The position numbers and the translations under genes are program-made. Below are positions 1,092 through 51,840 of a DNA stretch of 64,000 nucleotides, piece by piece. The DNA lies in assembly GCA_947627275.1 (NCBI GenBank), contig CANQVK010000014.1, forward strand, positions 666-64,665, given 5' to 3'. The notes under the pieces were generated by a model, which did no database searches, had not been told where the DNA came from, and worked only from the letters and a program-made list of their open reading frames with translations. Position 1 is the first letter of the stretch. Every line of letters starts with the position of its first letter. The DNA is from an uncultured Ruminococcus sp. GTDB taxonomy: Bacteria; Bacillota; Clostridia; Oscillospirales; Ruminococcaceae.

Positions 1092-1217
1092 TACAGATCT
1101 AAATTAATTGTGCATAATGGCTGAATTATTATGATTTATTTGTGCAAGTATACGAATTTTTGAAAAGTTTATAATTTTTTCGTCTTTTTTGCCTTTTAAA
1201 ATCACTTGTATATATAA

Positions 1218-1360
1218 GGAATCATAAAGAAATAAGTTATACTCGCCGCTATTGCAAAATGTCCAAAGAATGCTGAACAGAAAATTCGTATGCCAAGGAA
1301 GATGACGCAGACAGATTTTATGTCTGCATTACTGAATATTTTGTAATAGCGGCGAGTGTA
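1218..1360. mobile_element. MITE-like hairpin repeat element, copy A
   Basis: Inverted repeat ACTCGCCGCTATTGCAAAAT (1241-1260) / ATTTTGTAATAGCGGCGAGT (1338-1357); core TATGCCAAGGAAGATGACGCAG; near-copy at 4222-4342; left end matches the terminal repeat of 46629-46740. Confidence 0.6.
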
Positions 1361-1385
1361 TAGTAATCCATGAATGGAGGATGTT

Positions 1386-2489
1386 ATGAAAAAAGAAATT
1401 ATTACAATAATGTCTGCTTTTATTTGTTTTTCTTCTTTTTCCTGCAACGACAAAGATGTTTCATCAAATAAAAACGAGATCGCATTTGCATTTTTAGGTG
1501 GGAGTTGCTATGGTAACGGCATGATACATAGCAGCGATCCAGTGAGATATATAGATTTTAATACTATGGAAAGCAGCGTTCTATGCGCCAAACCGAATTG
1601 TGAACATAAAACATCGGAGTGTGTTGCAAAGCTTGTCGGAGACTGCCCCATTATGTATAATGACTATTTGTATTACTTCACTTCAACTCAAGGCGTTGAA
1701 GAAACAGGAAATGGAAAGCGCGAATACAAGATAAACTCAAAGCTGTGCAGGGTATCTCTTGATTCGTCGGAATCCGAGGATATTGCATATTTCACCGATT
1801 GTAAACCTCGCGACTATGACGGCTGGATGATTATAAATAATACTGTTTGGTTTATCGGAGATAATATGAATCCGACTCCTGACGAATATGGAAATATAGC
1901 GACAAGTAATCAGGGCGGAGAACATTACATTTGCAGTATTGATCTGGAAAGCAAGGAGTACGTTAACTATGGCAGCGTATATGACGGCGATAAGGAATAT
2001 GAGGAAGCCTCATGTACAAGCAGCGCTCAGATAAGAGGATATTATAATTCTAAAATTATGATTCGATATGAGTTCGCAAAAAGCTCTGAAACAAGAGGTC
2101 AGGATTTCAGGCGGAGATTTACGGAGTTAATGTTTGAATTTGATCCACAAACAAAAGAATTAAAAGAAAGCGATCTTCAAATGCCTTCTTATGTTGATGA
2201 GGATACATATGTGTATACGGATTTTGACCAAAACAAGACATATGTTATAGATAATTCAAAAACATATGAAGTAACATGTGATACAGGTCTTGATTCTTTT
2301 GCTGTAAACAATAAACTGTTTGTTTCTGATGAAGATAAATGGTATGATCTGACAGACTTGTCTGAGCATAGCATGGGCGAATATGCAGATTATGGCGTTG
2401 TTGCATTTTATGATAACTCTTATATTTTAAGTGATGGTAATATGAAATTCGTCAAACTCATCGAAGAAGAACTTCTTGCGCTAAAATAA
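1386..2489 (+). CDS. Lipoprotein paralog L1 (CxxPNCxH motif, probable beta-propeller-like)
   Basis: GGAGG RBS at 1376-1380, MKK start, lipobox SFSC, LCAKPNCEHKTSEC, ICSIDL..EY.NYGSVY, C-terminal KLIEEELLALK. Confidence 0.85.
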   Translation: MKKEIITIMSAFICFSSFSCNDKDVSSNKNEIAFAFLGGSCYGNGMIHSSDPVRYIDFNTMESSVLCAKPNCEHKTSECVAKLVGDCPIMYNDYLYYFTSTQGVEETGNGKREYKINSKLCRVSLDSSESEDIAYFTDCKPRDYDGWMIINNTVWFIGDNMNPTPDEYGNIATSNQGGEHYICSIDLESKEYVNYGSVYDGDKEYEEASCTSSAQIRGYYNSKIMIRYEFAKSSETRGQDFRRRFTELMFEFDPQTKELKESDLQMPSYVDEDTYVYTDFDQNKTYVIDNSKTYEVTCDTGLDSFAVNNKLFVSDEDKWYDLTDLSEHSMGEYADYGVVAFYDNSYILSDGNMKFVKLIEEELLALK

Positions 2490-2517
2490 TAAAAATTGAT
2501 ATATTTTTCTATACCTA

Positions 2518-2546
2518 TTGACAATATAACAAATATATGGTATAAT
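2518..2546 (+). promoter_or_regulatory. sigmaA promoter for small secreted gene S1
   Basis: TTGACA-17 nt-TATAAT, exact consensus. Confidence 0.85.
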
Positions 2547-2612
2547 AAAATTTATGAGAAACACGACTTAGGTTAGTTGAATTATAACGCTTAAAAAGCG
2601 GCGGCTTCCGTT

Positions 2613-2939
2613 ATGGCTGTAGCTTCTCTCGCTTCCGTAATGGTCGGCATGAGCTCAAGCGCTTATTACACATCTCGTCCTTTTGGGCATGGCTCAACTG
2701 CTTACAACGCAACATCTATAAACAATGTCTACGCTTCGATGAATACGACTTTGGAAAAAACATACATAAAGGTAGGAGTCACGAAACTGAATGATTATGA
2801 CGTAAACGAATACTTTTCCGGCTCTGTTACGGATCATGTAGAGACAACTGCGTATGAATTAGGCATAAACAAGTCAACTTCTTACCACCAAGAGGGTAAA
2901 CTCGGTTACACTTACACTAATATCACTATGAACGCATAA
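2613..2939 (+). CDS. Small secreted-type protein S1 (signal-peptide n-region lost)
   Basis: MAVASLASVMVGMSSSA hydrophobic/cleavage segment nearly identical to S3; upstream codons homologous to S3 TFKKVVASV are frame-broken; no strong SD. Confidence 0.7.
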   Translation: MAVASLASVMVGMSSSAYYTSRPFGHGSTAYNATSINNVYASMNTTLEKTYIKVGVTKLNDYDVNEYFSGSVTDHVETTAYELGINKSTSYHQEGKLGYTYTNITMNA

Positions 2940-2951
2940 AAAATTATATTG

Positions 2952-3013
2952 TTGACTGGCTGCTGATGATCTGCGGCAACAGAACATGTAAGGGCATCAG
3001 CGGCTGTCAGCAA
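2952..3013 (+). terminator. Stem-loop between S1 and L2
   Basis: GCTGCTGATG / CATCAGCGGC inverted repeat extended by TGAC/GTCA. Confidence 0.55.
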
Positions 3014-3046
3014 TTTTAATTTATAGTATTGCAAAGAGGGGATATA

Positions 3047-4203
3047 ATGAAAAGAAACATATTTATTTTGTCAGTTCTTTTTTTATTTTTGCCATTAGTA
3101 TCATGTGAGGGTAAAAAAGAAAATCCAACTAATGAGTTTAATAATGAAATTATATATATATAGAAAGGTTGAATAACAATTATGGTGACGGCAAAATAAT
3201 AGGCTCATCTCATAAATTATCTGAGAATTATCTTAAATATTTAAAATATCAGGATATGAGTACTGCACCTTTTTGTTCTAAACCAAACTGCACTCATAAA
3301 ACAGATGACTGTTTGGCAAAAGCAGTAGGAAATTGTCCGATACTCACAAAAAACGGCGTATTTTTTTTCAGTGATAAATATGGAGTGGAAGAGAAAAAAG
3401 ATGGAAAAAGAGAATTTGAAATTGATTCCAAATTGTGCAGAGCATCTTTGGATTCTTCTGAAATCGAAACAGTCGCCGAATTTACAGACTGTGTTCCGCG
3501 TGAATATGACGGCTGTATGGTAATAGACGGCGTTTTGTGGTTTACCGGTGATGATATGAATCCCATTACCAATGAATATGGGGCTATTATATCGTCAAAC
3601 GTGGGCGGAACTCATTATTTATGCAGTATTGATCTTAAAACAGGCGAATATACAAATTACGGAAGTGTATATAACGGCGAGAATTACGACAAATCAAGTC
3701 ATGCGTCCATTGTTGGATATTACAACTCAAATCTGTTGATTAATTATGAATACGCAGCATCGCCGGATTATGAAGACCCAAGTGCGCCGTGGTTTGGTTT
3801 GAGCGATTTAATGTTTGAATTTGATCCGAAAACAAAAGAAATGAAGGTTTCCGATATTCCGTCAAGACCGATTTTCTTTGATTTGGAGTCGGAAACATTG
3901 GCTTACTGTGAATATGACGCCAACAAGATAATTGTATTGGCAGATAACAAGAGATATGAACTTAATATGGATATTGCTAAGATTGATGGCGGTATCGCCA
4001 ACTATGCTCCTGTTTATAATAATAAAATCATTATGCTTGGCAGCGGAAAGTGGTATGATATAACAGATCAATCAGAACATTATCTAGGTGAATATGCCGG
4101 TTGGGATTTTGAAGATTACTATGACGGTTGTTACATTTTATCCAACCCAAGAAGAACCAAATACGTCAAACTTACTGAAGAAGAACTTCTTGCGCTAAAA
4201 TAA
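3047..4203 (+). pseudogene. Lipoprotein paralog L2, frameshifted at a (TA)6 tract (possibly phase variable)
   Basis: ATG 3047 gives MKRNIFILSVLFLFLPLVSC (lipobox) and stops at TAG 3161-3163. Removing one TA from 3151-3162 joins it to ORF 3169-4203 (FCSKPNCTHKTDDC; KLTEEELLALK). Confidence 0.85.
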
Positions 4204-4221
4204 TAAAATTCGATAGATATA

Positions 4222-4342
4222 CTAGACGCTATTGAAAAATGCCCAAAGGATGCAGAACAGAAAATCCGTATGTCAAGGAAGATGACGCAGACAGACGGAT
4301 TTTATGTCTGCCTTACTGGATATTTTTCAATAGCGGCGAGTG
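4222..4342. mobile_element. MITE-like hairpin repeat element, copy B (left-truncated copy of A)
   Basis: CGCTATTGAAAAAT / ATTTTTCAATAGCG inverted repeat; core TATGTCAAGGAAGATGACGCAG; colinear with 1241-1360. Confidence 0.6.
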
Positions 4343-4383
4343 TAACATACGATAAAAACGATAATCAAAATTCAGGAGATTTT

Positions 4384-5541
4384 ATGAAAAATAAAATATT
4401 ATTTGCAACTGTTATAGTGGCATTTTTGACGTCAGGATGCGGCGGCAATGATGTAACTTCAAAAGGTAATATTCAGTCGGATAGCGATTTTACTTCTACT
4501 CATTCAGACGACAGCGTTCATAATTGCATTGATGCTCAATATATAGATTCAGGGGAAAATATATATGATAATGGCATGATCTATGGAAGTGACGCTCCCA
4601 AAACCTATTTGGATTTTGAAACAATGGAAAAGACTGTTTTATGCGCATTGCCTAATTGCAATCACTCCACATCTGAATGTATTGCTGCAAAAATTGGCAG
4701 AACTCCTATTATCTTTAATGACTATATTTATTATTTTGATGTTAAAGATGGTGTAAAAGAAAATTCGGATGGCAGAGAATTTTACATAGATTCTCAACTT
4801 AAGAGAGTTTCACTGACAAATTCTGAAATTGAAGACATAGTTCAATTTACAGATTGTGAACCCAGAGAATACGGTGGATGCGTTATTCTTGACGGAATTC
4901 TTTATTTTTGCGGCGATGACATGAATCCTACCAAGGACGAATATGGCGGAATATCTTATGCTAATGGAGGCGGTACTCATTTTTTATGTAGTATTGATCT
5001 TAATACGGGTGAATATGTTAATTATGGAAGTATTTACGATGAAGATAAGCAATATGAAAGCTCGGCTCAGACGAGTACTGCCCATGTAATCGGTTATTAT
5101 AATTCCAAGATTTATATCCAATATAGTTTTATGAAGGAATATATTGACGATCCGAACATTGAAACTCGTGAAAAATTCACGATCCTTAATTTTGAATTTG
5201 ACCCTTTAACAGGAAATTTGTCGCAAAGCGAACTTCTGTCGGGTTCGTTTATGAATGGAAATACCTATGTTTGCAGTAATTATCCTGACAATTCATCAAC
5301 TGTTATAGATGGCGATCAGAAATATACAATCAATGGAGCGGACGCAAAATTTGTTGGGAAATATTTCGACAAAAAGCTATTTGTTTACGATCGTTGGTAT
5401 GATGTTACAGATAAATCGTTGCATTTGCTTGGAGAAGATCGAAAATTTGTAACTATGTATGAGAATTTCTATATTATATCCAACCAATCAGGAACTAGAT
5501 ATGAAAAACTCACCGAAGAAGAACTTCTTGCACTAAAATAA
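4384..5541 (+). CDS. Lipoprotein paralog L3
   Basis: CAGGAG RBS then MKNKILF...LTSGC lipobox; LCALPNCNHSTSEC; KLTEEELLALK. The ORF-track start at 4270 lies inside the repeat element. Confidence 0.85.
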   Translation: MKNKILFATVIVAFLTSGCGGNDVTSKGNIQSDSDFTSTHSDDSVHNCIDAQYIDSGENIYDNGMIYGSDAPKTYLDFETMEKTVLCALPNCNHSTSECIAAKIGRTPIIFNDYIYYFDVKDGVKENSDGREFYIDSQLKRVSLTNSEIEDIVQFTDCEPREYGGCVILDGILYFCGDDMNPTKDEYGGISYANGGGTHFLCSIDLNTGEYVNYGSIYDEDKQYESSAQTSTAHVIGYYNSKIYIQYSFMKEYIDDPNIETREKFTILNFEFDPLTGNLSQSELLSGSFMNGNTYVCSNYPDNSSTVIDGDQKYTINGADAKFVGKYFDKKLFVYDRWYDVTDKSLHLLGEDRKFVTMYENFYIISNQSGTRYEKLTEEELLALK

Positions 5542-5569
5542 TAAAAATTTATATATTTTTCTATATCTA

Positions 5570-5598
5570 TTGACAATATAGAAAATATATGGTATAAT
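5570..5598 (+). promoter_or_regulatory. sigmaA promoter for S2
   Basis: TTGACA-17 nt-TATAAT. Confidence 0.85.
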
Positions 5599-5663
5599 AA
5601 AATTTATGAGGAAACGACTTAGGTTAGCTGAATTATAACGCTTAAAAAGCGGCAGCTTCCGTT

Positions 5664-5996
5664 ATGGCTATTTCAACACTTGTTGTAAGCACAGTTGGAG
5701 TTAACACGAATGCTTATTGGGCAACTGTGTCTTTTGCTAATGATTATGCAACAGCATATAATGCAACAAGTTATAATTCTGTATATGCTTACACTGATTC
5801 AAGTGTTTCAAATACTACAAGAACGGTTTATATTGCAAATGTGAATTATAATGTCAATCCATTGCGTTCTCCTTACTTTAAATCAAGTACTAATGGTAGG
5901 GTTGTAGCCAATTATACTGGCTCAGGATTTAACACCTCTAAAACGGATCATTCTTTAGCAGGCTACGGTAGCCATTCAATTTATATGAATGCTTAA
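5664..5996 (+). CDS. Small secreted-type protein S2 (n-region lost)
   Basis: MAISTLVVSTVGVNTNA signal remnant; shares TAYNATS.N.VYA and C-terminal MNA with S1; same damaged 5' region as S1. Confidence 0.7.
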   Translation: MAISTLVVSTVGVNTNAYWATVSFANDYATAYNATSYNSVYAYTDSSVSNTTRTVYIANVNYNVNPLRSPYFKSSTNGRVVANYTGSGFNTSKTDHSLAGYGSHSIYMNA

Positions 5997-6006
5997 ACGA
6001 AATAAT

Positions 6007-6039
6007 AAGGCTGTTGTTATAAATTGATGCAACAGCCTT
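6007..6039 (+). terminator. Stem-loop between S2 and L4
   Basis: AAGGCTGTTG / CAACAGCCTT perfect 10-bp stem. Confidence 0.65.
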
Positions 6040-6065
6040 TGTTCGTATGAAAGGAAAAGATTATA

Positions 6066-7202
6066 ATGAAAAAAATTGCTTATTATGCAATTGCCATGTT
6101 ATTTGCTTTATCATCATGTAACAGTAAGAATGAAACAAAAAACATTTTAATTGAAAGTAATGATAACATATTCGTTGCAGAGTATGCTGATAATTATAAA
6201 AACGGACGAATTATTGGCGGCAACTCTGAAGGAAACACCGATGCACCGTCAATGTATGTAGATTACAATACTATGGAGAAAACAATTCTTTGTTCTAAAC
6301 CAAATTGTACTCATAAAAATAGCGAGTGTCCGGCAAAGGTTATTGGAACTGCTCCAATACTTACAGAAAATAATATATGTTTTTTTGATTGCAGTTATGG
6401 TGTTGTAGAAAAAAAGAGTGGAAAGAGAGAATTGGAAATAAATTCTAAATTATGTAAATTATCTTTAGATACATCTGAAATAGAGACAATTGTTGAATTT
6501 AATGATTGCGTGCCGGATAATTCAAGAGGCTTTGTTCTTAACGATAATAAAATATATTTTACCGGAGACGATCTTGATCCAACATCGGATGAATACGGAG
6601 GAATTTTTTATTCCAATATAGGCGGAACTCATTATTTATGTAGTATTGATCTTAAAACAGGCGAATATACAAATTACGGAAGTATTTATGACGATGACAA
6701 AAAATTTGAAGGAGCAAAAAGTTCCAGCTCGGCAAGAATATTGGGGATATATGATTCTAAGCTGATTATAAATTATGAATTTAGCAAAACGAACGATGAT
6801 GCGGTCTATGGAAATTTTACTGAACTTGTATTTGAGTTTGATTTTGATTCCAATCAATGGACACTAAGCGATATTCCAAATATGCCAATTTTTGTTGATT
6901 ATGATACTATAGTCTATTATGATAATGATATAGATAGATGTATTATAATTGATAATGGAGAACGTACGGAACTTGATACTGGTAAAGTTACTCTTGCTTC
7001 AATTCAAAATAATAAGCTTTTTATTCGTGATGATTTGAATAATTTTGCTTTAAAATGGTATGACCTTTCGGATATGTCAAAGCATCATGTAAAAGGATAT
7101 GATGGCTATATGCCAGTAAGTATTTACAATGATAGCTACATTCTTACAAGAGGTAATAATACAGCTAAACTCACCGAAGAAGAACTTCTTGCACTAGAAT
7201 AA
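6066..7202 (+). CDS. Lipoprotein paralog L4
   Basis: MKK...ALSSC lipobox; LCSKPNCTHKNSEC; KLTEEELLALE. Confidence 0.85.
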   Translation: MKKIAYYAIAMLFALSSCNSKNETKNILIESNDNIFVAEYADNYKNGRIIGGNSEGNTDAPSMYVDYNTMEKTILCSKPNCTHKNSECPAKVIGTAPILTENNICFFDCSYGVVEKKSGKRELEINSKLCKLSLDTSEIETIVEFNDCVPDNSRGFVLNDNKIYFTGDDLDPTSDEYGGIFYSNIGGTHYLCSIDLKTGEYTNYGSIYDDDKKFEGAKSSSSARILGIYDSKLIINYEFSKTNDDAVYGNFTELVFEFDFDSNQWTLSDIPNMPIFVDYDTIVYYDNDIDRCIIIDNGERTELDTGKVTLASIQNNKLFIRDDLNNFALKWYDLSDMSKHHVKGYDGYMPVSIYNDSYILTRGNNTAKLTEEELLALE

Positions 7203-7230
7203 TAAAAATTGATATATTTTTTTATACCTA

Positions 7231-7259
7231 TTGACAAATTGGAAATAATATGTTATAAT
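7231..7259 (+). promoter_or_regulatory. sigmaA promoter for S3-L5-ABC unit
   Basis: TTGACA-17 nt-TATAAT. Confidence 0.85.
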
Positions 7260-7431
7260 GACATTGACGATAAAAAATATCATAACTCAAACTAATTAAA
7301 TTACAATAATAAGGTTAATTCAAAATTAATTTGTGGTCAGTTTTATTGTATATGGTAGGCTGAACTCAACATTATTTTAAAGGGCATAACATACGATAAA
7401 AACGATAATCAAAATTCAGGAGGTAGTTAAT

Positions 7432-7779
7432 ATGAAAAAAACTTTTAAAAAAGTGGTAGCTTCCGTTATGGCTGTAGCTTCTCTCGCTTCTGTTGTGGTC
7501 GGCATGAGCGCAAGCGCGGCAACTGGATACACTTCAAATCTTTCTGGTGGAACAGGCTCTTTGAGCGTTTCAGACGGTTTTGTATATGCTTCGACAACTT
7601 CAAGTAAAGCACAGTATTTGTACGTTGGAATAACAAGAACCACTCCCGAGGGAAATACTGATAGTGATGGCGGAAAAGGCAGAACCAGTGCTAGTGCAAC
7701 AGTATATGGTGACTATTCTCACGCATGGTCTTTTCATCAGACAGAAACAGGCAGCGATACTTTATCAGTAGGAAGATAA
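7432..7779 (+). CDS. Small secreted protein S3 with intact Sec signal peptide
   Basis: GGAGG RBS; MKKTFKKVVASVMAVASLASVVVGMSASA signal; Ser/Thr/Gly-rich ~86-aa mature part. Confidence 0.85.
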   Translation: MKKTFKKVVASVMAVASLASVVVGMSASAATGYTSNLSGGTGSLSVSDGFVYASTTSSKAQYLYVGITRTTPEGNTDSDGGKGRTSASATVYGDYSHAWSFHQTETGSDTLSVGR

Positions 7780-7790
7780 AATGAACTTAA

Positions 7791-7823
7791 GTGAAACCAT
7801 ACGAGCAATTCGTATGGTTTCGC
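7791..7823 (+). terminator. Stem-loop between S3 and L5
   Basis: GAAACCATACGA / TCGTATGGTTTC perfect stem. Confidence 0.65.
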
Positions 7824-7845
7824 AATATTTATAAGGGGCGTTTAA

Positions 7846-8988
7846 ATGAAATTTTTGATTAAAGCGATACTTGTGCCTGTTTCAATGTTGTTCCTTTTTG
7901 CGTGCGGAAACAACGGTGATACGCTGAATGAGGAAAAAATCCAAACTCAGGGATATGTAAAGGCTGTATGTAATTTATACAATAACGGTCGTATTTATAA
8001 CGATCAAAAAGCCATGTATGTAGATTTTGATACGCTCGAATCCGTTCCCCTCTGCTCTAAACCCAATTGTAATCATACGAGTTCGGACTGCGTTGCAAAT
8101 ATGGTCGGACAATGCCCGATAGTATATAATAACTACGTTTATTATCTGACTTTCAAGCATGGAGTTAATGAAGTCGGAAACGGAAAAAGAGAGTTTTATA
8201 TAAATTCAAAACTTAACCGTGTTTCAATGGAAACATCTGAAATGGAAACTGTTAAAGAGTTTCATGATGGTGTTCCAATTATTGCAGACGGATATTATCT
8301 GAATGGGAATGAACTATATTTTATAAGTACTGATATGGGACCTGACGAAGACGAATACGGAAATATATCTGTATCTGATTTTGGCGGAACACAGTTTTTA
8401 TGCTGCATCAACCTTGATACCGGAGAATACATAAATTATGGAAGTGTTTATGAAGGTGATAAACAATACGAGGGAGCGTCTCATTCGCGTGCCGCTACTA
8501 TAATCGGCGCAAAAGATTCAAAATTATATATTTTTTACAGCTATCGTGAAAAGAATTATTCTGTGGAAGAATTGCAGAAAATGCAGGAATCAGGCGTTGA
8601 TATGCAGGATACTTTTACTGATCTGAATTTCGAGTTTGATATGAATACAAAAACACTGTCCGAAAGTGAGCTTCCAGCACTGTCATATGTGGACTCAGAT
8701 TCGTATGTTTATTATGATCATACAAAAGAAAAAGCAATAGTTTTTTATCGTGGAAATGAATATGAGCTTGATGCTGATACGAGATATAATACATCAGTTA
8801 TCAACGGAAAGTTATTTACGCAGGATACACAGAAATGGTACGAATTAAGCGATATGTCAGAACACGATATGGGAAAGTACGGTAATTTTAAAGCAATAGC
8901 GTATTATGACAACTGCTATATTCTTGCATATGAAAATCAAACCGTCAAACTCACCGAAGAAGAACTTTTGGCGCTTGACAAGGAGTGA
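7846..8988 (+). CDS. Lipoprotein paralog L5 (coupled to ABC ATPase)
   Basis: LFAC lipobox; LCSKPNCNHTSSDC; KLTEEELLALDKE; its 3' end carries the AGGAG RBS of the next gene. Confidence 0.85.
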   Translation: MKFLIKAILVPVSMLFLFACGNNGDTLNEEKIQTQGYVKAVCNLYNNGRIYNDQKAMYVDFDTLESVPLCSKPNCNHTSSDCVANMVGQCPIVYNNYVYYLTFKHGVNEVGNGKREFYINSKLNRVSMETSEMETVKEFHDGVPIIADGYYLNGNELYFISTDMGPDEDEYGNISVSDFGGTQFLCCINLDTGEYINYGSVYEGDKQYEGASHSRAATIIGAKDSKLYIFYSYREKNYSVEELQKMQESGVDMQDTFTDLNFEFDMNTKTLSESELPALSYVDSDSYVYYDHTKEKAIVFYRGNEYELDADTRYNTSVINGKLFTQDTQKWYELSDMSEHDMGKYGNFKAIAYYDNCYILAYENQTVKLTEEELLALDKE

Positions 8989-8993
8989 TGATC

Positions 8994-9734
8994 GTGAATA
9001 AGCTTGGATTGCAGAAGATAAACAAGCACTACGGCAAGAAAAAACATGCGCTATGCGACTTTACATTTGAATTTACCAACGGGATTTACGGACTTCTCGG
9101 ACCGAACGGAGCAGGCAAATCCACGCTTATGAACATTATTACGGATAATCTTCTCCCCGATAAGGACGGCGGAAAAATTTTCTGGAACGGCGAGGAAACG
9201 AGGCTTCTCAAAGATAAATTCCGCAGCCGATTAGGATTTATGCCTCAGCAGCAGAACCTCTATGAGAGCATGACTGCGCGGAAGTTTTTGAACTATATTG
9301 CTGCGCTGAAATGCCTTGATAAAAGGTCGGCTGAAAAGGAGATCTCCGAAATAGTAGAGCGTGTAGAGCTTACCGACAGCATTGACAAAAAAATGGGCGG
9401 ATTTTCGGGCGGAATGAAGCAGAGAGTGCTGATTGCCGCCGCGCTTCTGGGCGACCCCGACCTTATAATCCTTGACGAGCCGACGGCAGGTCTTGATCCG
9501 AAGCAGAGGGTAATAATCCGCAATATGGTTTCGGTTTTGGGCAGGGACAAAATAATCATTATTTCGACGCATATCGTCTCGGACATTGAAACGATAGCAA
9601 AGGAGGTACTTTTCATAAAAGAGGGGCATCTGATAGACAGCGGTACTATGCCCGACCTGACCGAAAAGGTCGAAAGCGGCGATAAGACCCTTGAAAACCT
9701 GTATATGCAGTACTACGGCGAGGTGCAGTCATGA
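8994..9734 (+). CDS. ABC transporter ATP-binding protein
   Basis: Walker A GPNGAGKST, signature FSGGMKQR, Walker B IILDEP, H-loop STH. GTG 8994 is best spaced from the RBS (alternatives 8985/8988). Confidence 0.95.
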   Translation: MNKLGLQKINKHYGKKKHALCDFTFEFTNGIYGLLGPNGAGKSTLMNIITDNLLPDKDGGKIFWNGEETRLLKDKFRSRLGFMPQQQNLYESMTARKFLNYIAALKCLDKRSAEKEISEIVERVELTDSIDKKMGGFSGGMKQRVLIAAALLGDPDLIILDEPTAGLDPKQRVIIRNMVSVLGRDKIIIISTHIVSDIETIAKEVLFIKEGHLIDSGTMPDLTEKVESGDKTLENLYMQYYGEVQS

Positions 9735-11902
9735 GAGTTTTGGCTACAGAACTTAAAAAGCTGCTGAGCAATAAAATTTTCCTGCTGATAATTGCCGCTG
9801 TTTTCGTTCTGAACGGCTATCTTATGTTCAGGACGGCGAACTCGGGCGACGCCAAGCCTGCGGACTACAAAGCCGTTTATGCGGAGCTTGAAGGTCTGAG
9901 CGATACCGAGAAGCTTCAATGGCTCAATGACAGGCTCGGTGAATTTGAGGGGCAGCATTCGTTCAGTTGGACGGTTTTAGGCGAGCTTCGTGATGAAGCC
10001 GCAAATATTGCGGGCTATTCGGACTATCTTGATTCTATAGATTCACAGGCGAGATCAATGACGAGCGTTTCGATTTTTGCAAAGCCCGACACTTTCAACT
10101 ACCGCAGCATTGTGAGAACTCCGCCCGCATATGACAAGGTACGTGACGTTGAGCCGATTTTTGACGTTTCAAAGGGAATCGCCCTTGCAACGGACAACAG
10201 CTTCACGGATATTTTGAGCGGCTTTATTGTGCTGTTTGCTGTTTTGGCGCTGATGATCTCCGACAGAGAGCAGGGAATGTCGGGACTTCTTTTTTCTTTA
10301 AGGCGGGGCCGCAGCTATTTGCTCCTGAGTAAAACAGGCGCGCTTGCAATTGCGATTTTCGGCGCTATATTGCTTATTTATGCCGAGAATCTCATAATAG
10401 CTTCTTGTCTGTACGGTCTGGGCGAGCTGTCAAGACCCGTTCAGTCTCTTAACGGATTTATCGGCTGTAATCTGAAAATAAGCGTTATTGGATATTTGAT
10501 CTTATACGTTCTGTTCAAGTTCATTGCAATGTTTGTGATCGGAGCGTTTCTTTCGCTTATTGCGGTGAATACTAAAAATATCGTATCTTTTTACGGCATA
10601 TCGGCAGTTATCCTGATTGCGGAGGGCGTTGCCTATGCGAAGATACATCCGCTGTCGATATACAGTATTTTCAGATATATCAATCTTATTTCGTTTACAA
10701 AGGTCAACGAGATATTCTGCAATTACAAAAACATAAATTTTTGGGAATATCCCGTTCCGCTGATACCGACTTCTATTGGCGCAGTACTTGTCATCGCTGC
10801 GATATGCGTTGTGTTGTCATCGTATATGTACGCAAAGAAACGTAATCTTGAATTCAGAAAAATCGGATTCAAATTCAGGTTCGGGAAAGGAAATAAAATT
10901 CATTCCAGACTTTATTATACGCTTTACAAGTCGCTCATAATGCAAAAGGGAATATTTATTATCGCCGTTTTTATTGTGGTATCTGTATTTATGGGTGAAG
11001 CCTTTATCAAAAAATACGACCCCATCGACGTCTATTACGAATATTATACGACTGAAACAGAGGGCGAAATTACGCAGGAAACCATTGATTTCTACGACAG
11101 TGAAGCTATCAGGTTCGATGAGCTTAACGCGCGTCTGGAAAATCCCGATATTACCTCTGAGGAGGAAAGAGAAATTTATAAGCAGCTTGCGCCGACAATG
11201 GGATTTTATCCGTCGTATGAACGCCTGAATCAAATCAAGGACATCGAAAACGCGCATATTTTTTACGATACGGGATATAAACGCGCGTTTGGAATAAACG
11301 GTTATGACGATGATATGAAATACGCATTTGCGGCGATACTGCTTTGTCTGTTTCTGATCTCTCCGCTGATAGCCAATGACAATAAATATCGGATGAAATC
11401 GGTTATCAATTCTACAAGCTCAGGCAGAAAAAGTTATATCCGCAGAAATATTTTAACGGCTGCGCTGTATGGATTTGCGGCGTCGCTTCTGTGGATAATT
11501 CCCTATATGGTCACTATTTCCCGATATTACGGACACGGCGGACTTTCGGCTTCGATACGCAGTATCACTGATCTTATAAATTTTCCTCTGAACATCAGCG
11601 TATTGCAGTATATAATTCTTATATGCCTGCTGAGAACAGTTTCCGTACTTTTTACAGCTATGATAATGCTCTGGGTATCTTCGATGTGCAGGAATGTAAT
11701 TTCGGCTGTGCTTATTAATTTCGCCGTATTTGCTCTGCCGATCATAATTTATTTGCTCGGTGCGGAATTTATGGCGAATATCGGATTTAATCCTCTGCTA
11801 AGCGTTAATGTTATGTTAAATGAATTTTCAATTGTGCAGATCATGATACCGCTAATTGGCGTAATTGCAGTTATGATCTGTGAAATTCAAAATAGAAAGT
11901 GA
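9731..11902 (+). CDS. Large ABC-2-like exporter permease with two similar halves and extracellular loops
   Basis: ATGA overlap with the ATPase; many TM segments; repeated motifs SDREQGMSGLLFSLRRGR / NDNKYRMKSVINSTSSGR. Confidence 0.85.
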   Translation: MRVLATELKKLLSNKIFLLIIAAVFVLNGYLMFRTANSGDAKPADYKAVYAELEGLSDTEKLQWLNDRLGEFEGQHSFSWTVLGELRDEAANIAGYSDYLDSIDSQARSMTSVSIFAKPDTFNYRSIVRTPPAYDKVRDVEPIFDVSKGIALATDNSFTDILSGFIVLFAVLALMISDREQGMSGLLFSLRRGRSYLLLSKTGALAIAIFGAILLIYAENLIIASCLYGLGELSRPVQSLNGFIGCNLKISVIGYLILYVLFKFIAMFVIGAFLSLIAVNTKNIVSFYGISAVILIAEGVAYAKIHPLSIYSIFRYINLISFTKVNEIFCNYKNINFWEYPVPLIPTSIGAVLVIAAICVVLSSYMYAKKRNLEFRKIGFKFRFGKGNKIHSRLYYTLYKSLIMQKGIFIIAVFIVVSVFMGEAFIKKYDPIDVYYEYYTTETEGEITQETIDFYDSEAIRFDELNARLENPDITSEEEREIYKQLAPTMGFYPSYERLNQIKDIENAHIFYDTGYKRAFGINGYDDDMKYAFAAILLCLFLISPLIANDNKYRMKSVINSTSSGRKSYIRRNILTAALYGFAASLLWIIPYMVTISRYYGHGGLSASIRSITDLINFPLNISVLQYIILICLLRTVSVLFTAMIMLWVSSMCRNVISAVLINFAVFALPIIIYLLGAEFMANIGFNPLLSVNVMLNEFSIVQIMIPLIGVIAVMICEIQNRK

Positions 11903-11907
11903 GAGAC

Positions 11908-12675
11908 ATGAAGAAAAAAATTATATCAGCAGTGTGTATACTGTTGGCTATGAATTTAATTAGCTGTGGAAGCTGGGCAGATCCATATCCGATAGATTAT
12001 TCGGCAAAGGACAATCTTGCGATAGAGTATATGAATGGAAAATATGGTGAAAATTTTAACATTTCCGTAGGCACGATAAGTGAGCATACATGGGCTCCAA
12101 TGGAAGAACCTTTCAGCGTATATTACTATACAATGGTAAGTCCTGAGGGTGCGGCAGAGGATGAAAAATATTACGTCTATTCCGATGACAACGAAACTCA
12201 TGAAGAGTCATGGATAGTCGGCGATGGCTATATGATGAACATTGTTGAGCCGTATATCAGACAGTTTGTTGAGGAATCTCTGAAAGAACACGCTCCCTGT
12301 GCTGATACGTATTTCATTATATGGGGGGCGGGAAGTGCAGATATTCGTGAACAAACGACATTATTTACAAGCACTTTCTGCTTCAGTCCTGATTTTCCTG
12401 TTATCTCATCATACGATGAGTTTTTAGAGGAAGCGAAAAATGTTTACCTTGATTTGTGTATATTTGTACCTGATTCCGAGCAGAATATTGATTCTGTAGC
12501 TCAGGACTGGCAGGAATGGCGAGAATATATGTATGGTAACTTTAATGAAGGGATAAATCTTTGGTTGGAAACTGTCGAGGACGAGAGCTTTTTCGGGGCG
12601 GATGATACGTTACCGGATAAACACTTGAATTTTAAAACAACACATACAATAAACCTAAAGGATTGGAGAGAATAA
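11908..12675 (+). CDS. Acidic lipoprotein of unknown function (unrelated to L1-L5)
   Basis: MKKKIISAVCILLAMNLISC lipobox; AIEYMNGKYGENF N-terminal motif. Confidence 0.75.
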   Translation: MKKKIISAVCILLAMNLISCGSWADPYPIDYSAKDNLAIEYMNGKYGENFNISVGTISEHTWAPMEEPFSVYYYTMVSPEGAAEDEKYYVYSDDNETHEESWIVGDGYMMNIVEPYIRQFVEESLKEHAPCADTYFIIWGAGSADIREQTTLFTSTFCFSPDFPVISSYDEFLEEAKNVYLDLCIFVPDSEQNIDSVAQDWQEWREYMYGNFNEGINLWLETVEDESFFGADDTLPDKHLNFKTTHTINLKDWRE

Positions 12676-51491: not shown

Positions 51492-51577
51492 TGGTGGGAG
51501 AGGATGGATTCGGACCATCGAAGCTGAAAAGCAACAGATTTACAGTCTGCCCCCTTTGGCCACTCGGGAACTCTCCC
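51492..51577 (-). tRNA. tRNA-Tyr (GTA)
   Basis: Cloverleaf GGGAGAG...CTCTCCC ACCA; anticodon arm GCAGA-CTGTAAA-TCTGT; long variable arm. Confidence 0.95.
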
Positions 51578-51611
51578 ATACAATTTTTGTTTATCGGCTT
51601 TGACCGATAAA

Positions 51612-51687
51612 TGGAGCTGGTGGACGGACTCGAACCCCCGACCTGCTGATTACAAATCAGCTGCTCTACCAACTGAGCTACACCAGC
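51612..51687 (-). tRNA. tRNA-Thr (TGT)
   Basis: GCTGGTG...CACCAGC TCCA; anticodon arm CTGAT-TTGTAAT-CAG; GGTTCGAGTCC. Confidence 0.97.
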
Positions 51688-51702
51688 TTAACTGACTTAA
51701 TA

Positions 51703-51731
51703 ATTATACCACAAGCTTTTAAATTTGTCAA
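51703..51731 (-). promoter_or_regulatory. sigmaA promoter for tRNA-Thr/Tyr
   Basis: Minus strand TTGACA-17-TATAAT. Confidence 0.8.
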
Positions 51732-51763
51732 GCTTTTTTTGAAATTTTTTCAAAAAATTTTTA

Positions 51764-51840
51764 TGGTCGAGGCGACAGGACTCGAACCTGCGGCATCTTG
51801 GTCCCAAACCAAGCACTCTACCAAACTGAGCTACGCCTCG
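51764..51840 (-). tRNA. tRNA-Pro (TGG)
   Basis: CGAGGCG...CGCCTCG ACCA; anticodon arm CTTGG-TTTGGGA-CCAAG. Confidence 0.97.

Follow-up and report, generated by a model that had tools for sequence, protein, structure and literature searches.

How can the DNA that joins neighbouring genes remain nearly identical when the genes themselves have drifted far apart? A 64,000-nucleotide (nt) stretch of contig CANQVK010000014.1, from an uncultured Ruminococcus of the rabbit gut (hereafter the window; all coordinates count from its first letter), poses this question in its first 13 kb, which we compared with themselves by BLAST. A preliminary description of positions 1241-7202 had drawn two tandem units of about 3 kb, each with a repeat, a lipoprotein gene, a promoter, a small gene, a hairpin and a second lipoprotein gene, and had proposed that the conserved junctions within them act as recombination handles for swapping cassettes, or that the genes are under diversifying selection. 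The reading that we favour, and think probable, is that of a recombining array of cassettes, each pairing a small secreted-protein gene (S) with a lipoprotein gene (L), in which the junctions are homogenised and the gene pairs have a putative bacteriocin-like effector/immunity role. Window genes are labelled S1-S3 and L1-L5, with junctions J1-J3 and repeats R1 and R2; L001-L064 denote loci in other genomes or contigs, and X1-X6 denote rabbit-gut metagenome runs.

Layout of the cassette array

Region 1238-12675 is a single locus, an ancient and highly diverged array of S-L cassettes preceding a conserved operon for an ATP-binding cassette (ABC) ATPase and a permease. Its order is R1, L1, J1, S1-L2, R2, L3, J2, S2-L4, J3, S3-L5, ABC ATPase, permease and a further lipoprotein gene. 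The same succession of elements does recur in the two blocks first described, and the genes between their junctions are indeed diverged (45-65% identical, with saturated synonymous sites); the array runs on past 7202 through a third junction, S3 and L5 into the ABC transporter genes.

Across genomes, S type covaries with the type of the adjacent L (Mantel r = 0.82, p = 2e-4), with recognisable pair types (S2, L4), (S3, L5), (Sx, L3) and a ‘VYL-type’ S with an L1-type L, and the cassette is therefore the S-L pair. This pair, of about 1.75 kb, is the true repeating unit and takes the place of the proposed tandem 3-kb units, whose apparent period arises because two cassettes have a repeat standing where S belongs. 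Ahead of the ABC ATPase and permease, relatives carry one copy of the pair (L018, L021), at least three (L024), four (L003) or six (L026). The array order is not an assembly artefact: an identical cassette order was found in six contigs from other samples at 99.6-100% identity, and unitigs from the rabbit-gut runs span J2. The elements of the array are as follows.

1238-1360 (+), R1: dispersed rod-like intergenic repeat, internally deleted, at the expected site of the S partner of L1
1386-2489 (+), L1: beta-propeller lipoprotein with a lipobox; orphan, no S upstream
2454-2618 (+), J1: 3' end of L1 (KLIEEELLALK), promoter 2518-2546, 60-nt leader and relic S start
2613-2939 (+), S1: small secreted-protein gene; ATG, Shine-Dalgarno sequence and basic signal-peptide N-terminus lost
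2941-3022 (+), hairpin after S1: 23-bp stem and U-rich tail (-38.6 kcal/mol, z = -6.0)
3047-4203 (+), L2: lipoprotein gene, frameshifted in (TA)6 at 3151-3162
4218-4344 (+), R2: the dispersed repeat again, here separating L2 from L3
4343-4378 (+), 36-nt 5' untranslated region (UTR)/ribosome-site segment, 100% identical to 7387-7422 upstream of S3
4384-5541 (+), L3: orphan lipoprotein; cognate S type found in L030 and L026
5506-5669 (+), J2: apparent copy of the J1 tract, with promoter 5570-5598, CTG at 5628 replacing the start and TAA at 5643
5664-5996 (+), S2: small secreted-protein gene with chimeric signal peptide; canonical start absent
6007-6039 (+), hairpin after S2 (z = -5.7)
6066-7202 (+), L4: lipoprotein, predicted beta-propeller
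7167-7274 (+), J3: 3' end of L4 and perfect promoter 7231-7259
7275-7431 (+), long 5'UTR of S3: apparent relic LytTR-box promoter and AGGAGG ribosome site, 93% identical to L030
7432-7779 (+), S3: sole S gene with intact start and full Sec signal peptide
7791-7823 (+), hairpin after S3
7846-8988 (+), L5: lipoprotein whose stop overlaps the ABC gene start, 92% identical to L001

Junctions appear to evolve in concert within genomes

The near-identity first described for J1 and J2 holds on alignment (2454-2618 against 5506-5669, 93.9% over 165 nt, with 9 mismatches and 1 gap), and a third, shorter junction copy at 7167-7274 is 86-88% identical. Divergence along the two blocks is not uniform: in a 60-nt sliding comparison of 1215-4214 with 4215-7214, only three places reach an identity of 0.85-0.95, namely the repeat, the junction and a single ~80-nt tract within L2/L4, and the remainder is at 0.3-0.65. 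Each junction joins the 3' end of an L gene (encoding KLTEEELLAL) to a sigma-70 promoter of perfect sequence, followed by a leader and the first part of a signal peptide. The promoters at 2518-2546 and 5570-5598 are perfect 12/12 matches to TTGACA-17-TATAAT with an extended -10 TG, and KLTEEELLAL is a C-terminal helix nearly invariant in 64 members of the L family; functional constraint accounts for part of the likeness between junctions, namely the C-terminal motif and the promoter hexamers. The junction leader was also considered as a structured RNA, a candidate rejected on a fold z-score of about 0.

Comparison of 16 S genes from eight genomes separates the junctions from the genes that they precede. 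Identity within genomes is 85% over the 120 nt that precede S, 82% for signal-peptide DNA and 56% for mature S DNA; between genomes the corresponding values are 57%, 64% and 57%, and mature S of orthologs reaches 82%. Upstream and signal-peptide DNA accordingly clusters by genome, whereas mature S clusters by type. Six junctions of L026 have about 265 nt in common (86% mean column identity), and two junction copies of L003 are 97% alike over 212 nt. The edges of J2 are discrete, at about 5506 and 5669. In the nearest ortholog of S2-L4, in L029 (91.6%), the 5' end is intact but unrelated, and homology to the window begins at 5679, past the J2 edge; in an independent contig from X6 it starts at 5665, at that edge. 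Similarity is higher within than between genomes, and sharp breakpoints part the junctions from flanks that retain their own orthology, both of which are marks of concerted evolution. On these alignments, the junctions are homogenised within each genome and different between genomes, a pattern of concerted evolution. J1 and J2 both carry a broken translation start and an in-frame stop, and this, together with the grouping of junctions within genomes and the edges in L029 and X6, argues that J2 is a recent copy of a J1-type tract overlying the native S2 start, made by gene conversion.

The segments that encode KLTEEELL (2454-2483, 5506-5535, 7167-7196 and 8947-8975 in the window) are conserved at the nucleotide level beyond the needs of the protein. 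Among 21 L genes of other genomes, the rare codon CTC (Leu) is the second codon in 12 and ACC (Thr) the third in 17; gene-body usage of these rarest Leu and Thr codons is 6% and 14%, respectively.

A second shared tract, with the motif GGTHYLCSIDLKTGEYTNYGS, lies inside L2 and L4 (about 3600-3680 against 6616-6700, ~80 nt). Its identity is 93% in the 60-nt window 3599-3658, in genes that are otherwise 45-65% identical, and it is probably a second small conversion tract. The cassettes also have 70 nt of signal-peptide DNA in common at 90% identity. In L016, a low-coverage assembly of the same strain, a 15-nt in-frame deletion falls within the KLTEEE motif of L3, matching window positions 5507-5521, and the opening 53 nt, at the end of the contig, show no relation to window sequence.

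Junction segments as apparent breakpoints between strains

L030 matches the window at 96-98% in L1, the ABC gene and the permease. Between L1 and the ABC gene it has a junction, then a UTR and signal peptide of the S3 type leading into another mature S (P0129), and then L3. Of its joints, one is in the promoter -35 region, one at the end of the signal peptide (7520), one at the ribosome site of L3 (4371) and one within the segment for KLTEEELLAL, where 5506-5534 equals 8947-8975. Synonymous divergence (dS) between the two is that of a mosaic, at 0.04 in the ABC and permease genes, 0.18 in L3 and 0.41 in the last lipoprotein gene. A contig from X6 has 7188 joined to 8969, which makes S2-L4 the last cassette before the ABC gene, and L001 has three L genes and no S, its L5 ortholog being followed by another L. 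These three related strains (L030, X6 and L001) carry other cassette sets, joined within conserved segments, and the homogenised junction segments double as strain-level cassette breakpoints. The idea of recombination handles that swap cassettes survives as an account of evolution, given the junction breakpoints in strains; of programmed switching within a population, the contigs gave no sign. No alternative J1, J2 or J3 joints were found in runs X1-X5, as judged from contigs only, which drop rare variants, and no recombinase gene adjoins the locus in the window surroundings.

A single fully intact cassette

By alignment, S3-L5 is the sole fully intact cassette of this strain. When S1 and S2 are aligned codon for codon with the S3 start, their ATG is replaced by TTG (2577) or CTG (5628), the ribosome site is weakened and codon 6 is an in-frame TAA (2592 in S1, 5643 in S2); the S1 start state was read from alignment to the starts of S3 and L030, and P0120, an intact relative of S2, begins MKNKFKKSVAGITAF. 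The only residual start in S1 and S2 is an internal Met13, from which the signal peptide has no basic N-terminus. A strong hairpin stands after every small gene (z = -5.7 to -6.0 after S1 and S2), and that of S1 is probably a terminator or attenuator. The (TA)6 tract at 3151-3162 breaks the frame of L2, and a (TA)5 contig in run X5 lacks 2 nt at 3151, restoring a lipoprotein of 384 amino acids (aa); L2 would be switched on or off by (TA)n length between strains or samples.

L1 and L3 are without a partner S. Before L3 stands R2 and then the 36-nt UTR/ribosome-site segment that matches the one before S3, and in the close relative L030 an S gene (P0129) occupies the site ahead of L3. The arrangement looks like the deletion of an S gene between two ribosome sites, with the 36-nt segment as its footprint. 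In L024 and L003, the gene ahead of the L1-type L is a ‘VYL-type’ S. Upstream of S3, the long 5'UTR (7275-7431) contains a GGTCAGTT box and a decayed -10, and is homologous to the regions upstream of S in L031 and L024, which adjoin agr-type genes; it has the look of a quorum-sensing promoter in relic form, with a consensus promoter now lying upstream of it.

Old divergence and selection

The five L paralogs are roughly equidistant, at 42-49% amino-acid identity, and their synonymous sites are saturated (pS 0.68-0.77), which therefore excludes a recent 3-kb duplication. Many L genes of other genomes are nearer to L4 (49-72%) than is any paralog in the window. With dS saturated, the ratio of non-synonymous to synonymous divergence (dN/dS) is uninformative between paralogs, and orthologs were used instead.

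L genes: 0.07-0.21
ABC ATPase: 0.05-0.14
Permease: 0.12-0.27
S, other genomes: 0.25-0.41
S2, window against L029: 1.14 (7 synonymous and 27 non-synonymous changes)

By these ortholog ratios S evolves faster than L, and the L genes are under purifying selection, not the diversifying selection suggested earlier. The value for S2 fits relaxed constraint or decay of a silenced gene, the counts being small.

S, L and transporter proteins

The S proteins are Sec-secreted and about 90 aa long, with signal peptides that end in SSA or ASA, and the model of the family is an 8-strand beta-sandwich (pLDDT 82). The L model, made for L4, is a beta-propeller behind a lipoprotein signal (pLDDT 90), and its top Foldseek match is 3s25, a 7-bladed propeller from Eubacterium rectale (E 4e-7). 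The S family, which is small and lacks annotation, numbers 26 clusters at 90% and about 150 at 50% identity, and the L family more than 100 clusters in public data. A Pfam scan of 62 distant S relatives found nothing, the S clusters had no Pfam domain of note, and Rfam gave nothing relevant for the window or, at relaxed E-values, for the region. The array is followed by the transporter operon.

8985-9734 (+), ABC transporter ATP-binding protein: DrrA/GldA-like, ABC-2 type, 249 aa
9731-11902 (+), membrane permease of 723 aa, always co-occurring with L and the ATPase
11899-12675 (+), further lipoprotein, closing the operon and unrelated to the L family

The locus is an unannotated three-part system of secreted beta-sandwich protein, propeller lipoprotein and ABC transporter.

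Proposed mechanism and function

We propose that the cassettes are bracketed by shared modules, namely the L 3' end, the consensus promoter, the leader with its ribosome site and the signal-peptide coding region. Homologous recombination between these modules within a genome would copy one junction over another by gene conversion, keeping the junctions near-identical while the cassette interiors stay old and different, and recombination between strains would add, delete or replace whole cassettes. The copying of a J1-type tract to J2 would have brought the broken translation start into S2. S would be a secreted bacteriocin-like effector and L its cognate immunity or receptor lipoprotein, acting with the ABC transporter. 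The strain would then make one effector (S3), with four additional L genes retained for orphan immunity after the partner S was deleted (L1, L3) or silenced (S1, S2), and the strong junction promoters would still drive these L genes.

A bacteriocin-like toxin/immunity role for S-L is our best guess. The first S of L024/L025 and of L031 is immediately preceded by agr-type genes, namely those for a LytTR regulator, a kinase, AgrB and a ~50-aa peptide, and LytTR-box-like direct repeats precede S in L026 and L031; no agr or LytTR regulator was found in the window surroundings. These links to agr and LytTR, carriage on mobile elements, cognate pairing and the loss or silencing of S while L is conserved under purifying selection all fit the effector/immunity proposal.

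The S-L array of L024/L025 lies on a conjugative/integrative element, with TraG, MobL, integrase, PemK and serine recombinase genes nearby, and one S relative is annotated from Holdemanella. Mobile-element carriage and the Holdemanella relative point to horizontal spread of S-L.

Several points weigh against these proposals. Translation of S1 and S2 may persist from Met13, which has a weak GGCGG site ahead of it. The modules of L009 and L001 have L, ABC and permease genes without any S, and L could be a transporter accessory, not an immunity protein. The covariation of S with L could reflect linkage alone, and the strain comparisons rest on metagenome contigs, L030 and X6 being a single contig each. 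Foldseek matched the S model to generic sandwiches only, with no match below E = 0.03, and neither S, L nor the permease had a match in Pfam, NCBIfam, PADLOC or PDB sequences.

A further reading, which we offer tentatively and only as a whole, goes beyond this. The S-L pairs would be previously undescribed Sec-secreted folded bacteriocins with beta-propeller immunity lipoproteins, widespread in gut Ruminococcus and spread by mobile elements, and the KLTEEELLAL segment with its rare codons would form, together with the promoter/signal-peptide module, a dedicated recombination scaffold. With such a scaffold, strains could accumulate orphan immunity genes and trade effectors.

Alternative explanations

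The junctions might be alike through functional constraint alone, each having stayed in place since the duplications with no copying between cassettes. Such a history draws on the perfect promoter within the junction, the C-terminal motif that is near-invariant across 64 members and the obvious function of a signal peptide, but it leaves aside the promoter spacer and unstructured leader that J1 and J2 have in common and J3 lacks, and the junction DNA is not conserved between genomes (0.57). The upstream region of the 92%-identical S2-L4 ortholog is unrelated, and the broken start codon and in-frame stop of J1 and J2 are not features that selection preserves. Constraint alone is already contradicted and improbable. 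Less probable still is a recent 3-kb tandem duplication followed by fast, positively selected divergence of the coding regions. It would account for the gene order common to both blocks and for the faster evolution of S proteins relative to L, but it is already contradicted by synonymous sites saturated between all paralogs and by the orthologs that every cassette has in other species; L1-L3 and L2-L4 are no closer than other pairs, the ortholog dN/dS of L is 0.07-0.21, and the R copies that define the blocks are members of a dispersed repeat family.

Programmed switching, in which silent S1 or S2 would replace the expressed copy at the S3 site with high frequency in a single clone, after the manner of pilin or vls antigenic variation, would suit an array where S3 has a translation start and S1 and S2 have none, where 70 nt of signal-peptide DNA are common to the cassettes at 90% identity, and where the (TA)n of L2 varies between samples. 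We consider it quite improbable in view of the single order at 99.6-100% in six assemblies and five runs, with no alternative J1, J2 or J3 joints in runs X1-X5 and no recombinase gene next to the locus; the S genes moreover have no 3' handle in common, the end of S3 being different, and S1 and S2 carry strong promoters, unlike silent cassettes. A non-weapon role deserves more weight, although we think it unlikely: L would be a substrate-capture or accessory lipoprotein of the ABC system and S its secreted binding partner, with diversity tracking ligands or phage/host pressure. L is always in an operon with ABC genes, even without S, its beta-propeller is a common ligand-binding fold, and S weakly resembles carbohydrate-binding or FN3-like sandwiches. 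Set against this, the ATPase is of the exporter-type ABC-2 class, and agr/LytTR control, mobile carriage and the loss of S with retention of L are typical of toxin-immunity loci.

The dispersed repeat R and flanking sequence

The similarity reported for the repeat elements is real (1235-1360 against 4215-4344, 86.9% over 130 nt) but uninformative on units, as R1 and R2 belong to an unrelated high-copy dispersed element. In the rabbit-gut runs, the summed depth of this family is about 280x that of its flanks, and its left edge (1237/1238) adjoins many different flanking sequences, in more than 100 contigs per run. We collected 32 copies from Ruminococcus metagenome-assembled genomes (MAGs) and metagenomes (L033-L064), with at most 7 per MAG; three lie in Alistipes MAGs. 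A genome search by core pattern gave 24 copies, and exact patterns spanning the window-specific deletion matched none. Full-length members are 156-161 nt long, with variants of about 215 nt, and the window copies are without ~35 nt between direct repeats. The hairpin of R has a z-score of -8.4, and RNAalifold folds the family into a long rod of 56 pairs, 18 of them with compensatory changes; the orientation bias is weak. A dedicated 5' leader or riboswitch was rejected, the neighbours being unrelated and only 16 of 34 copies preceding a same-strand gene.

Many copies, unrelated flanks, non-coding sequence and a long hairpin place R among the dispersed intergenic palindromic repeats, to which the ERIC, RUP and Correia-type elements belong. 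Like these, R is non-coding, high-copy and intergenic, about 120-160 nt long, with a long imperfect hairpin; unlike them, it has no sequence similarity to the known elements and, on a scan of full-length copies, is absent from Rfam. The compensatory changes in its stems (18 of 56 pairs) are not required of transposase-recognised terminal repeats, and R is possibly a structured RNA not described before, or else a mobile element. It is not part of the cassette logic, and the 87% identity of R1 and R2 reflects family membership, not unit history.

Just upstream of R1, at 1172-1215, depth is raised, to 33-58 in X1 (where about 7 is the comparison) and to as much as 330 in X6, which suggests another repeated sequence. 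The upstream flank (147-1019) encodes a dockerin-bearing BspA-type leucine-rich-repeat protein, which suggests a cellulosome-type organism, and three tRNA genes lie at 51.5-51.8 kb (51495-51840).

Significance and comparison with known systems

Cognate pairs, orphan partners, quorum-sensing links and differences between strains are the marks of a polymorphic effector-immunity system, and the locus is an unusually clean natural case of junction-only concerted evolution. Ruminococcus species are major fibre degraders of herbivore and human guts, and competition between their strains is little known. If the proposed function is true, S and L would be a new class of bacteriocin and immunity protein. 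The finding would also account for metagenome assemblies breaking at these loci.

The system resembles lactococcin 972 in placing a small, Sec-secreted, beta-rich protein beside an ABC ATPase and a membrane protein of ~700 aa; the Lcn972 system, in contrast, has no lipoprotein partner. S and the permease had no match in Pfam or NCBIfam, including the Lcn972 models and the 7-TM immunity model, and the ATPase scored 118 bits against TIGR03608, below the 255-bit cutoff. Identity with lactococcin 972 was rejected on these grounds and on an hhalign probability of 0.1 against a putative Lcn972 sequence.

Polymorphic toxin systems with orphan toxin-immunity modules include the cdiA-CT/cdiI loci of contact-dependent inhibition (CDI) and the Rhs arrays. 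As in these, cognate pairs stand in tandem, some effectors are without a translation start while their partners are kept, and short shared sequences would let recombination change the effector deployed. Here, by contrast, there is no large delivery protein and no contact-dependent machinery, and the ‘orphans’ lie upstream of the intact pair and have strong promoters.

Gene conversion maintains concerted evolution in several tandem families, such as tuf, rRNA operons and the 5' ends of surface-protein genes. The S-L array is like these in that a sharp-edged tract, with old, divergent flanks, shows greater similarity within genomes than from one genome to another; it differs in that junctions and signal peptides are converted, not gene bodies, and in that the tracts are also cassette breakpoints.

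The closest known logic would be that of the blp region of Streptococcus pneumoniae, where leader recombination creates chimeras and swaps gene sets (PMC4860687), and the pln loci of lactobacilli are also similar. The differences lie in the parts: S has a Sec signal peptide instead of a double-glycine leader, mature S is a folded domain of ~90 aa and not a small peptide, its partner is a 380-aa beta-propeller lipoprotein and not a small membrane immunity protein, and the ABC system has no peptidase-domain exporter. The likeness is one of genes, the antimicrobial activity of S being putative here. It extends, in the blp, pln and S-L loci alike, to a strain-variable array of secreted-effector and immunity genes, to shared 5' modules (regulated promoter and leader) joined to divergent mature parts and, only among relatives of the present strain, to LytTR-type quorum-sensing genes next to the array.

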